Positions 4,028 through 8,458 of a DNA stretch of 40,751 nucleotides are shown here, one piece after another. Positions within the stretch are counted from its first letter, which is position 1; each line of letters begins with the position of its first letter. A program made the translations under genes and the position numbers. The stretch lies in sequence record NC_002166.1; one strand, 5' to 3'. The stretch is from Escherichia phage HK022. The notes under the pieces are model-generated. The model was not told the origin of the DNA, ran no database searches, and worked only from the letters and a program-made list of their open reading frames with translations.

Positions 4028-5185
4028 ATGTCTGAACTCGCTCTCATTCAAAAAGCTATCGAAGAATCCCAGCAGAAAATGACCCAGCTTTTCGATGCGC
4101 AGAAAGCAGAAATCGAAAGCACAGGCCAGGTTTCCAAACAGTTGCAGTCCGACCTGATGAAAGTACAGGAAGAGCTGACCAAATCCGGCACTCGCCTCTT
4201 CGATCTGGAACAGAAACTGGCATCCGGCGCTGAGAATCCTGGTGAGAAGAAATCCTTCTCTGAACGGGCTGCTGAAGAGCTTATTAAGTCATGGGACGGT
4301 AAACAGGGCACCTTTGGCGCTAAAACGTTTAACAAGTCACTAGGCAGTGACGCTGATTCGGCTGGCTCACTGATCCAGCCTATGCAGATCCCAGGCATCA
4401 TCATGCCAGGCCTGCGCCGTCTTACCATTCGTGATCTGCTGGCTCAGGGCCGCACTTCCAGTAACGCTCTGGAATATGTGCGTGAAGAGGTGTTTACCAA
4501 TAACGCCGACGTGGTGGCAGAGAAAGCACTGAAGCCAGAATCGGATATCACCTTCAGCAAACAAACCGCGAACGTGAAGACCATCGCGCACTGGGTGCAG
4601 GCATCACGTCAGGTGATGGATGATGCGCCAATGCTTCAGTCCTACATTAACAACCGCCTCATGTACGGCCTGGCACTGAAGGAAGAGGGCCAGCTGCTGA
4701 ACGGCGACGGTACCGGGGATAACCTGGAAGGGCTGAACAAAGTGGCAACCGCCTATGACACCTCGTTGAATGCCACCGGCGACACCCGCGCTGACATTAT
4801 CGCTCACGCTATTTATCAGGTGACCGAGTCTGAGTTCAGCGCTTCCGGTATCGTCCTGAACCCGCGCGACTGGCACAACATCGCGTTGCTGAAAGACAAT
4901 GAAGGCCGCTATATCTTCGGTGGTCCTCAGGCATTCACCAGTAACATCATGTGGGGCTTGCCAGTGGTTCCGACTAAGGCGCAGGCCGCCGGCACCTTTA
5001 CCGTAGGCGGTTTCGATATGGCCTCACAGGTCTGGGATCGCATGGATGCCACCGTGGAAGTTAGCCGTGAAGACCGCGATAACTTCGTGAAAAACATGCT
5101 GACCATCCTGTGCGAAGAGCGTCTGGCGCTGGCACATTATCGCCCGACAGCAATCATCAAGGGCACCTTCTCTTCTGGCTCATGA
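4028..5185 (+). CDS. major capsid protein (HK97 fold)
   Basis: 385-aa ORF with long N-terminal coiled-coil-like delta region (residues ~1-100) followed by capsid domain; classic protease-capsid gene pair. Confidence 0.9.
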   Translation: MSELALIQKAIEESQQKMTQLFDAQKAEIESTGQVSKQLQSDLMKVQEELTKSGTRLFDLEQKLASGAENPGEKKSFSERAAEELIKSWDGKQGTFGAKTFNKSLGSDADSAGSLIQPMQIPGIIMPGLRRLTIRDLLAQGRTSSNALEYVREEVFTNNADVVAEKALKPESDITFSKQTANVKTIAHWVQASRQVMDDAPMLQSYINNRLMYGLALKEEGQLLNGDGTGDNLEGLNKVATAYDTSLNATGDTRADIIAHAIYQVTESEFSASGIVLNPRDWHNIALLKDNEGRYIFGGPQAFTSNIMWGLPVVPTKAQAAGTFTVGGFDMASQVWDRMDATVEVSREDRDNFVKNMLTILCEERLALAHYRPTAIIKGTFSSGS

Positions 5186-5192
5186 TGGAGGG

Positions 5193-5214
5193 GGCGGGGA
5201 AACCCGCCATTTTA
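5193..5214 (+). terminator. partial terminator/attenuator after the major capsid gene
   Basis: GGCGGG-gaaa-CCCGCC hairpin followed by ATTTTA. Confidence 0.4.
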
Positions 5215-5218
5215 ACGT

Positions 5219-5545
5219 ATGGCGATAGATGTTCTGGATGTAATTTCCCTCAGTCTGTTTAAGCAGCAGATTGAGTTTGAGGAAGACGACAGGGACGAGC
5301 TGATCACGCTGTACGCCCAGGCCGCTTTTGACTACTGCATGCGCTGGTGCGATGAACCAGCATGGAAGGTTGCGGCTGATATTCCTGCCGCCGTTAAGGG
5401 CGCCGTTCTGCTTGTCTTTGCTGACATGTTTGAACACCGGACGGCACAAAGCGAAGTGCAGCTTTATGAGAATGCAGCCGCCGAACGCATGATGTTCATT
5501 CATCGCAACTGGCGCGGAAAAGCCGAATCAGAGGAGGGCTCCTGA
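5219..5545 (+). CDS. head-tail connector protein (gp6-like)
   Basis: 108-aa ORF directly after capsid gene; position and size fit head-tail connector family. Confidence 0.65.
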   Translation: MAIDVLDVISLSLFKQQIEFEEDDRDELITLYAQAAFDYCMRWCDEPAWKVAADIPAAVKGAVLLVFADMFEHRTAQSEVQLYENAAAERMMFIHRNWRGKAESEEGS

Positions 5546-5781
5546 TGGAACCGGGACGATTCAGGCACCGGGTAAAAATTCTCACCTTCACGACTTCGCG
5601 CGATCCATCTGGTCAGCCGGTTGAATCGTGGACAGGTGGCAACCCGGTCCCGGCTGAGGTAAAGAGGATCAGCGGCAGAGAGCAGCTTTCAGGCGGCGCG
5701 GAAACGGCGCAGGCAACGATTCGCGTCTGGATGCGCGCAACGGAGCGAGTGGATAAAAAAGTGGGCAAAAATAGCTTATGA
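5545..5781 (+). CDS. short head-tail adaptor homolog (possibly a truncated paralog)
   Basis: 78 aa; N-terminal 70 residues align with the 110-aa adaptor at 5977..6309 (shared RHR..P..G....W.....V.AEV...S.RE pattern) but the conserved C-terminal segment is missing; ATG overlaps upstream stop. Confidence 0.5.
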   Translation: MEPGRFRHRVKILTFTTSRDPSGQPVESWTGGNPVPAEVKRISGREQLSGGAETAQATIRVWMRATERVDKKVGKNSL

Positions 5782-5975
5782 ACGAGCAACTGGTAAACGA
5801 ACTGATAGCAGTGATACGGGAACAAATCACAGCGCAGAGTGAGCAGACGGAAGCGATAAGCCGTCTGGCTGAATCAAATATGGCGCTTTGCGATGTCATT
5901 ATCCAGTCGCTGGCTGGTGAACTAGATGAAACTGCAGAGCAACAAACCTATCTGAGCGGTAAACCCAGGGGGTAA
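5778..5975 (+). CDS. hypothetical protein (65 aa, acidic, helical)
   Basis: ATG overlaps the stop of the upstream ORF (ATGA); lies between the two adaptor homologs. Confidence 0.4.
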   Translation: MNEQLVNELIAVIREQITAQSEQTEAISRLAESNMALCDVIIQSLAGELDETAEQQTYLSGKPRG

Positions 5976-5976
5976 C

Positions 5977-6309
5977 ATGCAGGCCGGGAAATTGCGCCAC
6001 AGGATTACTCTGCAGGAGCCAGTAAAAGTGCAGAACCCGACAACGGGAGCCGTAATTAATACCTGGCGAGATGTTGCGACTGTCCGGGCCGAAGTTTCAC
6101 CATTGTCAGCGCGTGAATTTATTGCTGCGCAGGCTTCTCAGGGTGAAATAACCACCCGTATTGTTATTCGCTACCGTGCCGGAGTTACCAGAAAACATCG
6201 CATCTTGTTTCGTGGTGCTGTGTATAACATCCATGGTGTTCTGCCCGATCCAAAAAGCGGACGTGAATACCTGACGCTTCCCTGTTCTGAGGGTGTTAAT
6301 GATGGCTGA
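5977..6309 (+). CDS. head-tail adaptor / head closure protein
   Basis: 110-aa ORF with GGGGGT RBS; full-length member of the head-tail joining family. Confidence 0.7.
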   Translation: MQAGKLRHRITLQEPVKVQNPTTGAVINTWRDVATVRAEVSPLSAREFIAAQASQGEITTRIVIRYRAGVTRKHRILFRGAVYNIHGVLPDPKSGREYLTLPCSEGVNDG

Positions 6310-6841
6310 TAGTGTTGAGGTAAGTCTTACCGGGCTTGAATCACTTCTTGGGAAAATGGAGGCCGTATCAGAAGTCACCCGTAATAAAGCCGGTCGGTTT
6401 GCATTGCGTAAGGCGGCAAACATTATAAGGGATCGGGCCAGAAGCAACGCGTCACGAGTTGATGATCCTCTGACTAAAGAAGCAATCCACAAAAATATCG
6501 TCGCCAGCTTCAGCAGCAAGCAATTCCGCAGGACAGGTGATCTGGCATTCCGTGTCGGGGTAATGGGCGGTGCCAGGCAGTATGCAAATACAAAGGCAAA
6601 CGTCAGAAAAGGCAGAGCGGGTAAAACATACAAAACCTCAGGAGATAAAGGCAATCCAGGAGGAGATACCTGGTACTGGCGTTTTCTTGAGTTTGGTACT
6701 GAGCACACATCAGCGCGGCCTATCCTCCGACCTGCAATGAACGGCGTAGATAATGACGTGATTAATGTTTTTTCTACGGAAATGGGAAAGGCTATTGATC
6801 GCGCTATCAGGCTGGCCATGAAGAAAGGAACCACTGCATGA
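6299..6841 (+). CDS. HK97 gp10-like neck/tail-completion protein
   Basis: 180 aa; ATG at 6299 or 6302 after GAGGGTG; start overlaps upstream stop. Confidence 0.65.
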   Translation: MMADSVEVSLTGLESLLGKMEAVSEVTRNKAGRFALRKAANIIRDRARSNASRVDDPLTKEAIHKNIVASFSSKQFRRTGDLAFRVGVMGGARQYANTKANVRKGRAGKTYKTSGDKGNPGGDTWYWRFLEFGTEHTSARPILRPAMNGVDNDVINVFSTEMGKAIDRAIRLAMKKGTTA

Positions 6842-7203
6842 TTGCCCCTATTTTTTCTGTTTGCGCGTCGAGTCCTGAAGTCACTGACTTACTCGGAAGC
6901 AATCCGGTAAGAATTTATCCTTTCGGAATTCAGGACGACAACGTGGTCTATCCCTATGTGGTCTGGCAGAACATCACCGGTTCTCCAGAGAACTACATTG
7001 CCCAGCGCCCTGACGCAGACTTTTTCACGCTGCAGGTGGATGCATATGCCGACACCGTGGATGAAGTGATTGCCGTGGCTACTGCGCTGCGGGATGCCAT
7101 TGAGCCGCACGCGCATATCACGCGCTGGGGCGGACAGGAAAGAGACCCCGAAACAAAGCGCTATCGCTACTCATTCGATGTTGACTGGATAGTCACTCGA
7201 TAA
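6838..7203 (+). CDS. tail terminator-like protein
   Basis: 121-aa ORF with ATG overlapping upstream stop; last gene before the major tail gene. Confidence 0.55.
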   Translation: MIAPIFSVCASSPEVTDLLGSNPVRIYPFGIQDDNVVYPYVVWQNITGSPENYIAQRPDADFFTLQVDAYADTVDEVIAVATALRDAIEPHAHITRWGGQERDPETKRYRYSFDVDWIVTR

Positions 7204-7216
7204 ACGTATTATTCAA

Positions 7217-7241
7217 CCACCGGCCTTGAGCCGGTTTTTTT
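7217..7241 (+). terminator. rho-independent terminator
   Basis: ACCGGC-cttga-GCCGGT hairpin followed by T7. Confidence 0.6.
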
Positions 7242-7257
7242 ATGACCGGAGATAACA

Positions 7258-7758
7258 ATGTCTGTATTGACGCAAGGTACGCAGCTCTTTGTGCTCGTAA
7301 AAGGCAAGGTGAGCGAAGTTGAATGTATCACTGCATTTTCACCCGGCAGCAATCCGGCTGACCAGATTGAAGACACCTGTCTTTCTGAACGCTTTGATCG
7401 CAGCTATAAGCGTGGTCTTCGAACGCCTGGCACAGCATCACTGACGCTTAACGCTGATCCTAAAAATACCAGCCACATCATGCTCTACAACCTGTCCATT
7501 TCGGACGACGAAGAGGATCAGGACCTGACCTTCGCGATTGGATGGTCAGACGGAACCGCATCGCCAACTGCGGCTGAAAATGGTGCATCCGGTGCAGTCG
7601 ATGGCCTGGTGCTACCTGATAGCCGCACATGGTTCGTATTCAAAGGCTATGTGTCCGACTTCCCGTTTGATTTTTCAGCAAACACGGTTGTTTCTACTTC
7701 TGCATCTATCCAGCGCTCCGGCTCTGCTGTATGGGTGCCAAAAGTCGTGACCCCATAA
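7258..7758 (+). CDS. major tail (tube) protein
   Basis: 166-aa ORF with GGAG RBS, positioned before the chaperone/tape-measure genes. Confidence 0.75.
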   Translation: MSVLTQGTQLFVLVKGKVSEVECITAFSPGSNPADQIEDTCLSERFDRSYKRGLRTPGTASLTLNADPKNTSHIMLYNLSISDDEEDQDLTFAIGWSDGTASPTAAENGASGAVDGLVLPDSRTWFVFKGYVSDFPFDFSANTVVSTSASIQRSGSAVWVPKVVTP

Positions 7759-7796: not shown

Positions 7797-8282
7797 ATGA
7801 AATTAACACTTGATGCACTCAAGGAGTCCGGCGCGTTTACCGGTCGCCCGGTTGAGAAAGAAATCACCTGGACGCAAGGCGATAAAAAAATCACCGCGAC
7901 CGTGTATGTTCGCCCGATGGGTTATCACACAGCAACGTCCGATGTGCTGGCTTTTGGTGGTAAGGTCGATGGTGTGGCAGGGCGTATCGCCGCATCCATC
8001 TGCGATGAACATGGTAAACCCATCTTCACCCCGGCTGACATTACTGGTGAGGCAGATCCTGAACGTGGTGCACTGGATGGCGGCCTGACGGTAGCACTGC
8101 TTCTGGCCATTCAGGAAGTTAACGATCTGGGAAAGACTTCGAGCTCAGCGCCGAAGACGAATTCTGGTGCGAGCTCGTCCTCAACGGAATCGGAGGCAGA
8201 ACAATCGCCGAAGCGCGGGAAGTCCTCTCATTCAAAGAGTCCCAACTCTGGGCAAAGTACCGGGAACGATACGGGAGTCTGA
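7797..8282 (+). CDS. tail assembly chaperone (lambda gpG analog)
   Basis: 161-aa ORF directly upstream of tape measure; contains slippery heptamer near its 3' part. Confidence 0.8.
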   Translation: MKLTLDALKESGAFTGRPVEKEITWTQGDKKITATVYVRPMGYHTATSDVLAFGGKVDGVAGRIAASICDEHGKPIFTPADITGEADPERGALDGGLTVALLLAIQEVNDLGKTSSSAPKTNSGASSSSTESEAEQSPKRGKSSHSKSPNSGQSTGNDTGV

Positions 8283-8458
8283 ACCCTATGTTGCGGGTTG
8301 AGTGGGGTGCCGGGCTGGTGAGCAGCATGATAGCCAACGTTAACAGAGACCCCAAGCGCCCACCATTCAACCCGACCGATTTCACACTTCACTTTACCAA
8401 AGTCAAAGCTGCTGATGGACCAATCTCGTTAGAGGAAGCCAGAGCCAGCTGGACATAA
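7797..8458 (+). CDS. tail assembly chaperone, frameshift-extended product (lambda gpGT analog)
   Basis: -1 frame is open from 8135 to stop TAA at 8456-8458 (107 codons, no internal Met-initiated ORF of 60 aa or more), giving a fusion of about 220 aa. Confidence 0.7.
8129..8135 (+). promoter_or_regulatory. programmed -1 ribosomal frameshift slippery heptamer G_GGA_AAG
   Basis: GGGAAAG in the 0 frame as G GGA AAG (codons 112-113 of the chaperone), the same heptamer used by lambda G/GT. Confidence 0.75.

Follow-up and report, generated by a model that had tools for sequence, protein, structure and literature searches.

The stretch of DNA analysed here, referred to as the window, is the 40,751-nucleotide sequence of Escherichia phage HK022 (NC_002166.1). 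Its late operon lies on the + strand, in the order portal, protease, major capsid protein, gp6, gene 7', gene 8, gene 9, gp10, gp11 and major tail protein (MTP). The features considered in this study are listed below, with the evidence for each in parentheses.

5219..5545, + strand: gp6, head-tail adaptor Ad1, last intact gene of the HK97-type head module (PF05135; phrog_40, Ad1)
5545..5781, + strand: gene 7', truncated head-closure (Hc1) remnant, 78 aa (PF05521; PDB 2kz4; SD; exact match to AAF30359)
5545..5736, + strand: codons 1-64 of gene 7', HK97-type gene 7, strands β1-β4 plus the tunnel-helix loop (tblastn; AF2 strand map)
5737..5781, + strand: last 14 codons and stop of gene 7', ATERVDKKVGKNSL*, orfX-derived DNA read in the -1 frame (alignment; tblastn)
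5726..5736, no strand: crossover point, 11-bp microhomology TCTGGATGCGC (three-way alignment; megablast overlap)
5726..5842, + strand: orfX remnant, codon 4 onward, with no upstream in-frame start (intact orfX in ~85 related loci)
5755..5761, + strand: A_AAA_AAG heptamer in the orfX frame (kept in most relatives)
5778..5975, + strand: gene 8, 65 aa, acidic, phrog_2612 (profile match; AF2; pS/pN)
5977..6309, + strand: gene 9, full-length head-closure/stopper Hc1, 110 aa (PF05521; TIGR01563; 2kz4; SPP1 gp16)
6302..7203, + strand: gp10 (HK97-gp10 family, Ne1) and gp11 (tail terminator/completion) (profile matches)

The open reading frames (ORFs) at 5545..5781 (78 aa), 5778..5975 (65 aa) and 5977..6309 (110 aa) lie exactly where an earlier, sequence-only reading of this DNA had placed them, and are the same objects as the annotated HK022 genes 7, 8 and 9 (AAF30359-61). 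The products of gene 7', gene 8 and gene 9 were exact matches to the HK022 proteins AAF30359, AAF30360 and AAF30361, respectively. The gp6 protein was 100% identical to that of HK97 at the amino acid level and 99.4% at the nucleotide level.

The product of gene 9 was recognised along its full length by PF05521 (116 bits against a cut-off of 25, E 1e-33, profile positions 1-106 of 106) and by TIGR01563 (73.5 bits, positions 1-100 of 101), and was aligned by sequence, end to end, with PDB 2kz4 (E 4e-11) and with SPP1 gp16 (2kca/7z4w); it was 99.1% identical (aa) to gp09 of mEp235. The product of gene 7' matched only the first part of the same models, that is, positions 1-70 of 106 in PF05521 (Phage_HCP; 58.8 bits, E 9e-16), positions 2-69 of 101 in TIGR01563 (gp16_SPP1) and residues 2-69 of 2kz4. 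Both proteins fell in PHROG 25 ('head closure Hc1'), and were 29% identical to each other over 73 residues in BLASTP (E = 4e-9). The two proteins thus belong to one family, PF05521, rather than to distinct ones, and the shorter is truncated relative to its relatives (~50 clusters of Hc1 proteins of 107-114 aa).

The sequence-only reading had called the two proteins head-tail adaptors. In current nomenclature the members of this family are Hc1 head-closure (stopper) proteins, and Ad1 proper is gp6 (5219-5545). The same reading had aligned the shorter ORF with the first ~70 residues of the 110-aa protein; the C-terminal part is indeed missing, whereas the true homology stops earlier, at residue 64. 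As an Hc1 stopper, the gene 9 product would be expected to form a hexamer on the Ad1 ring and to shut the portal channel in the virion.

Junction of two parental modules

In megablast searches, positions 5219-5736 of the window (gp6 and codons 1-64 of gp7) were 99.4% identical in nucleotide sequence to HK97, and positions 5726-6309 were 99.1% identical to mEp235, the two segments overlapping at query positions 508-518. A three-way alignment was used to locate the switch. Only TCTGGATGCGC was common to HK97 gene 7 and the mEp235-type orfX at this point, and the sequence on either side was unrelated. When a closer right-hand relative was used (locus L011), the shared stretch was 8 bp, GGATGCGC; HK97 and mEp235 stand in for the actual parents, and the length of the microhomology is therefore given as 8 or 11 bp.

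Residues 1-64 of HK97 gp7 were matched to positions 5545-5736 at 96.9% amino acid identity (tblastn). The C-terminal 48 aa of the 112-residue HK97 protein were found nowhere in the whole 40.7-kb window, in any frame. The left parent is broken after codon 64 of 112 of HK97 gene 7, inside the head-closure gene, and the right parent 9 nt inside the leader ORF orfX, so that both genes at the joint are broken. Residues 65-78 of the gene 7' product (ATERVDKKVGKNSL) come from unrelated right-parent DNA read in another frame.

The sequence-only reading had proposed that recombination left a scar here, at a mosaic joint among the head-tail connector genes, and the change from 99.4% identity to HK97 left of 5736 to 99.1% identity to mEp235 right of 5726 bears this out. 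The region 5545-5781 is very probably the scar of one out-of-register recombination between an HK97-type head module and an mEp235-type neck/tail module.

A crossover within 8-11 bp of microhomology joined the HK97-type head to the mEp235-type neck/tail out of register. Gene 7 lost β5-β8 and now continues out of frame into orfX DNA for 14 codons, and orfX lost its start. In the course of events proposed, the incoming module would have supplied a complete gene 9 together with gene 8, the small acidic helical gene that is always found in front of it. As this module has its own complete head-closure gene, the phage could have stayed viable. A recombinant with a new tail also needs the stopper that matches it; here this stopper, gene 9, arrived along with the tail, the head's own stopper gene was cut, and gene 7' would have been left as a translated, functionless remnant. 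The original event may have taken place in either an HK97-type or a ClpP-type head background. Gene 9 is taken as functional because it is complete and co-inherited with its module, and its sequence points to a working stopper, matched to the new tail.

Structure and persistence of gene 7'

For a full-length HK97-type gp7, the AF2 model (pLDDT 86.8) shows strands at residues 8-19, 25-31, 35-41, 59-64, 74-77, 86-89 and 101-108, and two short helices at 44-56. The model was superposed on Shigella SF1141 (2kz4) with a TM of 0.87 and on SPP1 gp16 in the connector complex (7z4w) with a TM of 0.80, over all 112 columns in both cases. The homology of gene 7' ends exactly at the end of β4 (residue 64); strands 74-77, 86-89 and 101-108 are missing, and β5-β8 are lost. 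Judged from this model, gene 7' is without half of a single-domain, approximately eight-stranded barrel, and its product would lack a complete β-barrel core. In SPP1, gp16 contacts the adaptor ring via Q39, Y61, S91, E95 and R98, and its β1-β2 loop points to the tail (PMC9701221). The C-terminal adaptor contacts S91/E95/R98 have no counterpart in gene 7'.

The SD of gene 7' is the strongest in the region (-12.5 kcal/mol; background median, -2.4), and its TGA overlaps the ATG of gene 8 (ATGA). Gene 7' is probably translated into a structurally incomplete protein.

The identical joint was found in HK140, in mEpX2 and in prophages of 5 complete E. coli genomes, and in only 3 IMG/VR contigs. In the annotations of HK140 and mEpX2 the HK022 genes are cited, as 'putative head-tail adaptor', gp8 and gp9. 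Loci L092-L094 carry the joint behind another head module (ClpP-type protease, DUF7210 and an mEp235-like Ad1). Their gene 7' is chimeric, with ~21 codons of another Hc1 allele (MQAGRLRDRVVVQNIT...) at the 5' end, and is identical to the window from ~5608 through the joint. The scar was therefore transferred to another type of head by a further crossover, which fell within the remnant. Three points count against an inert gene 7', namely that its ribosome-binding site is the strongest in the region, that the ORF is mostly intact and that it survived a second recombination.

The carriers are >99% identical around the joint, and a variant-position test was used for gene 7' in place of dN/dS for this reason. 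In this test, in which some substitutions came from raw-read assemblies and the positions were picked after the data had been seen, changes at invariant positions occurred only in truncated copies (R9L and W29R; 2/8, against 0/52 for full-length HK97-type gp7; Fisher p = 0.016, with just 8 substitutions). BLOSUM scores were lower for the substitutions confined to truncated copies (p = 0.02, same sample of 8). These variants at family-invariant residues suggest relaxed constraint, or neutral drift, the evidence from this small sample being modest but consistent. The gene 7' ORF was intact in all listed variants except P0011, which is frameshifted in an A-run. With carriers so similar around the joint, the persistence of gene 7' needs no selection. 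Gene 7' thus appears to be a functionless remnant, the product of which would be unable to close the barrel.

Gene 7' could instead encode a functional short paralog, acting as an assembly regulator or as a dominant-negative decoy that would spoil the necks of HK97-type phages infecting the same cell. Such a role would agree with the strong SD, the tight translational coupling, the intact ORF in ~130 contigs, the retention of the gene after its transfer to a second head type and the presence of the N-terminal β1-β2 loop, which faces the tail in SPP1 gp16. We regard it as quite improbable, however, as half of the single-domain barrel and the C-terminal adaptor contacts are missing, the last 14 residues are meaningless sequence, read out of frame from another ORF, variants occur at invariant residues (in the sample of 8 substitutions), one variant is frameshifted, and with carriers >99% identical around the joint the gene can persist without selection. 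In addition, its position in the late operon would provide no prophage expression by which incoming phages could be excluded. In RefSeq both ORFs are tagged 'head closure Hc1'; caution is needed with this annotation, and gene 9 alone should be taken as functional.

The incoming module, orfX and gene 8

Loci with gp8 homologs (~90) were collected from IMG/VR, two genomes, E. coli prophages and raw-read assemblies; a gp8 scan of genome contigs gave only 2 loci, IMG/VR being far richer. A single full-length Hc1 was found by tblastn in 82 of 92 sequences (91 fetched loci and the window segment). In ~85 related loci, Ad1 was followed by orfX-gp8-gp9(Hc1)-gp10-gp11 and then by MTP, with at least six unrelated head modules. 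In these relatives gp8, gp9, gp10, gp11 and MTP were co-inherited, with 58-100% aa identity to the window, and the gp6 of the window had no match in the related loci that carry gp8-gp11/MTP. Since at least six Ad1 types abut the same orfX start and gp8 to MTP are co-inherited, the usual boundary lies between Ad1 and orfX. Ad1 travels with the head, and Hc1, orfX and gp8 travel with the tail. The same gp9 type works behind at least seven different Ad1 types, and the Ad1-Hc1 interface therefore appears permissive and the Hc1-tail interface specific. The boundary is displaced only in the HK022 group, by 192 nt into the next gene of the left parent and by 9 nt into orfX.

What is annotated as a ~60-nt 'spacer' between Ad1 and gp8 is a conserved ORF, orfX, which extends 95 nt into gp8 in a different frame. 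It was intact (51 codons, own SD) in ~85 related loci, and its ATG lies -1 to +10 nt from the Ad1 stop, across at least six Ad1 types that are 22-52% identical to one another. The N-terminus follows the pattern MxCxGCxxRREW[LIV]KKW[TA]KIAY... and matches phrog_19728 (E 6e-7). For codons 1-20 of orfX, pS was 0.2-0.9 against a pN of 0.0-0.19, whereas pS was close to pN in the other two frames; in the orfX/gp8 overlap, the variation tracks the codon positions of gp8. Displacement of the boundary by 9 nt leaves orfX without its start codon in the window, and HK022 itself has an extra premature TGA at 5840-5842.

The A_AAA_AAG heptamer is in the correct phase for orfX and is preceded by three different codons (TTA, ATA and GTA), all of which end in A. 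Programmed -1 frameshifting from orfX into gene 8 at this site was considered and rejected, as loci L088-L090 keep the protein with ATT AAG AAG (T_AAG_AAG). No significant stimulatory structure was found downstream of the heptamer (fold z-scores of -1.1 to +0.9). An orfX-gp8 fusion protein was likewise rejected, the gp8 frame having stops just upstream of the ATG in most lineages. The longer forms of gp8 in the databases are C-terminal read-throughs (P0043, P0026, P0140 and P0115), N-terminal extensions in which the upstream stops are mutated (P0142 and P0146) or a frameshifted assembly (P0158).

The product of gene 8 is acidic (11 D+E against 4 K+R; pI 4.2), as the sequence-only reading had observed of an ORF that it described as wedged between the two homologs. 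Its position is a regular one, since the gene is a conserved resident that lies just upstream of a full-length Hc1 in every relative examined. The protein matched phrog_2612 (small phage protein; E 2.4e-24, positions 1-65 of 66), with 177 homolog clusters in the Enterobacteriaceae (Klebsiella, Citrobacter, Salmonella, Raoultella, Enterobacter and Escherichia), and sequence searches gave no significant match in PDB or NCBIfam. AF2 predicted one long helix at residues 3-59 (pLDDT 85.7, confident to ~residue 47), after which comes a variable, acidic and predicted disordered tail that ends in a conserved YLSGKPRG. Gene 8 is under purifying selection (pS 0.5-0.9 against pN 0.03-0.14). It has no SD of its own (-4.7 kcal/mol). 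A promoter and terminator scan of 5100-7400 found none apart from the known one after gp11, and an Rfam scan of 4500-7500 gave no match.

Small, of no known function and absent from HK97, gene 8 might be taken for a moron, or for a selfish element that had disrupted an ancestral gene or inserted itself between two adaptor genes. This is highly improbable. Without a promoter or terminator of its own in the 5100-7400 scan and without an SD, gene 8 is not a moron; purifying selection acts on it, it is inherited along with the tail genes, and in all relatives it is found at one place, between orfX and Hc1, across at least six head types. Gene 8 is a real gene and a resident of the incoming neck/tail module. 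Because gp8 and gp9 are always adjacent and co-inherited, our best guess, held with low confidence, is that the gene 8 product is a candidate neck/head-completion accessory acting with gp9.

Translation of gene 7' may deliver ribosomes to gene 8, with the 5' part of gene 7' serving as a homology handle; we put this forward tentatively, as somewhat more doubtful than not. It is unlikely, though conceivable, that ancestral gene 8 relies on the translation of orfX, possibly with slippage at A_AAA_AAG into a frame that stops on the gene 8 ATG, and that gene 7' took over this leader role via the ATGA, being retained both because it drives translation and because it offers homology for tail-module swaps among phages with an HK97-type gene 7.

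The sequence-only reading had offered a partial duplication alongside the recombination scar. An intragenomic partial tandem duplication of gene 9 or of gene 7, followed by divergence, would produce two members of the same family 430 bp apart on one strand, the first without its C-terminus. Gene 7' is, however, 96.9% identical in amino acid sequence and 99.4% in nucleotide sequence to HK97 gp7 and only 29% to gp9, the flanking DNA matches a different phage on each side, and relatives with gp8-gp9 have no upstream fragment. Gene 7' and gene 9 are diverged homologs from two parents and not paralogs, and we give duplication hardly any credence. A sequencing or assembly artefact, i.e. a frameshift in a full-length gene 7 such as that in the A-run of the database variant P0011, is practically untenable, because the missing 48 residues are absent from every frame of the window and the same joint is present in the independently sequenced HK140, mEpX2 (two separate sequences) and 5 complete E. 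coli genomes.

Comparison with known systems

The mosaic joint of HK022 at genes 7-9 was reportedly already described with the genome sequence, and the gene numbering points the same way. Juhala and colleagues, in 2000, are said to have treated the truncated HK022 gene 7 as a direct demonstration of non-homologous recombination. In the numbering of HK97, gp7 is followed directly by the 'gp10 family', the tail subunit is Gp12, and 8 and 9 are left out; the original annotators had therefore aligned HK97 with HK022 and recognised the extra HK022 genes. No description of HK022 gene 7 was found in open-access full text. Added here are the type of the right-hand parent (mEp235-like, sequenced later), the breakpoint at base level with its 8-11 bp of microhomology, the leader ORF orfX, which is broken here and has mostly gone unannotated, the signs of relaxed constraint and the second-generation recombinant.

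The stoppers HK97 gp7, SPP1 gp16 and SF1141 (2kz4) resemble gp9 over its full length and gene 7' over its first 64 residues. Their genes lie right after Ad1, as in the window, where the gene in this position, gene 7', has only β1-β4. The neck modules of mEp235 (gp08-gp09) and of Klebsiella and Citrobacter prophages are the same module as that of the window from 5726 onward. They start cleanly at the orfX start after Ad1, whereas that of the window starts 9 nt inside orfX, behind a foreign half-gene. Adaptor/connector genes decide whether capsids are joined to HK022-type or to HK106 (HK97-like) tails (bioRxiv 10.1101/2025.02.11.637232). The joint marks a functional boundary, with Ad1 on the side of the head and Hc1, orfX and gp8 on that of the tail, and this fits the adaptor/connector-tail experiments.

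As in joints formed by illegitimate recombination (Hendrix model), identity switches abruptly from ~99% to ~99% in HK022, with 8-11 bp shared and without a diverged 'shoulder'. Phage mosaic joints are mostly found at gene boundaries, messy ones having been removed by selection. Most surviving lambdoid joints conform to this, whereas the HK022 joint lies inside a single-domain gene, where it was tolerated because a complete homolog lies downstream. Short-homology recombination is documented for lambdoid mosaic joints, with RecET events at 5-13 bp (cited in PMC2327257). The HK022 joint is a rare unedited product, which lies mid-gene and survives only thanks to the complete replacement in the incoming module, and from it follows that an exchange of modules can begin with recombination that is essentially random and needs no more than microhomology.

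The leader ORF upstream of gp8

A conserved ORF of 51 codons, orfX, is found in relatives of HK022 between the gene for the head-tail adaptor Ad1 and gp8 (the 65-aa ORF at 5778-5975), and is annotated almost nowhere. In the window its start codon is lost at the joint where HK97-type sequence gives way to mEp235-type sequence. The two forms are located as follows.

orfX remnant: window 5726-5842
orfX intact: L001 2992-3147; L004 2992-3147; L088 2539-2694; about 80 further loci

The ORF starts directly 3' of Ad1, encodes MxCxGCxxRREW[LIV]KKW[TA]KIAY... and shares 95 nt with the 5' end of gp8, read in a different frame. A Shine-Dalgarno (SD) sequence of its own is present, gp8 has none, and codons 1-20 are under purifying selection; orfX may be a leader for gp8. 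The N-terminus matched phrog_19728, and the ORF was called as a gene in only 8 protein clusters out of 5.8 billion.

In one assembly, L091, the sequence TGG TAA AAA AAG (about 2520-2530) places a nonsense codon within orfX, and gp8 is then called as an N-terminally extended ORF of 85 aa; either orfX is dispensable in that locus or the assembly is in error.

Position 21 of gp8 is Ser in HK022 (window 5838-5842) versus Arg or Lys in the other 19 aligned homologs, with Arg kept in HK140 and mEpX2. The dead orfX frame gains a premature TGA from the same base change that is responsible for Ser21.

The heptamer within orfX

One short motif lies in phase with orfX.

A_AAA_AAG heptamer: window 5755-5761; corresponding position in relatives

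The preceding codon (Leu, Ile or Val) ends in A every time (TTA, ATA or GTA), the rare ATA included, and the -1 frame from the heptamer stops at the gp8 ATG. ATT AAG AAG occupies the site in L088-L090. A structure downstream of the heptamer was looked for and none was found. Seven A's were seen at the site in two loci (L037 and L084).

Gene 7' and other breaks in HK97-type gp7

Gene 7', the truncated HK97-type head-closure remnant of 78 aa (5545-5781), recurs in second-generation mosaic loci.

Second-generation mosaic loci: L092 2665-3765; L093; L094

In these, a head of the ClpP-protease type and an mEp235-like Ad1 are followed by a chimeric gene 7', made up of about 21 codons of a different allele and, from there on, sequence identical to that of HK022; the joint is also the one seen in HK022. 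The remnant has acted as a homologous exchange site.

HK97-type gp7 has been truncated or fused independently, with the break after about residue 82-84, in two database proteins: P0269 (84 aa), from Enterobacter hormaechei and present in 21 contigs, and P0274 (260 aa), from Leclercia, in which an unrelated sequence of 177 residues continues the gp7 part. Both probably represent scars left by deletions in prophages undergoing decay.

Gene overlaps and the tail assembly chaperone pair

Stop and start codons overlap or abut through the entire gp6-gp11 run. For gp10 the start codon is ambiguous between GTG 6293, ATG 6299 and ATG 6302 (window 6293-6309), and every option overlaps the end of gene 9, the full-length head-closure gene. 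Further downstream lies a pair of ORFs.

Tail assembly chaperone pair: window 7797-8458 (161-aa ORF, 7797-8282; 56-aa ORF, 8288-8458)

In the E. coli p10B prophage (L004), an ISKpn26 transposase of the IS5 family (5495-6475) is inserted directly 3' of the tail assembly chaperone gene, and this prophage is likely defective.

The HK022 pair represents the -1 frameshift that is conserved in, and expected of, the tail genes of siphophages; it corresponds to the G/T analogs of lambda, and the counterpart ORFs of HK140 are annotated as a frameshift fusion.
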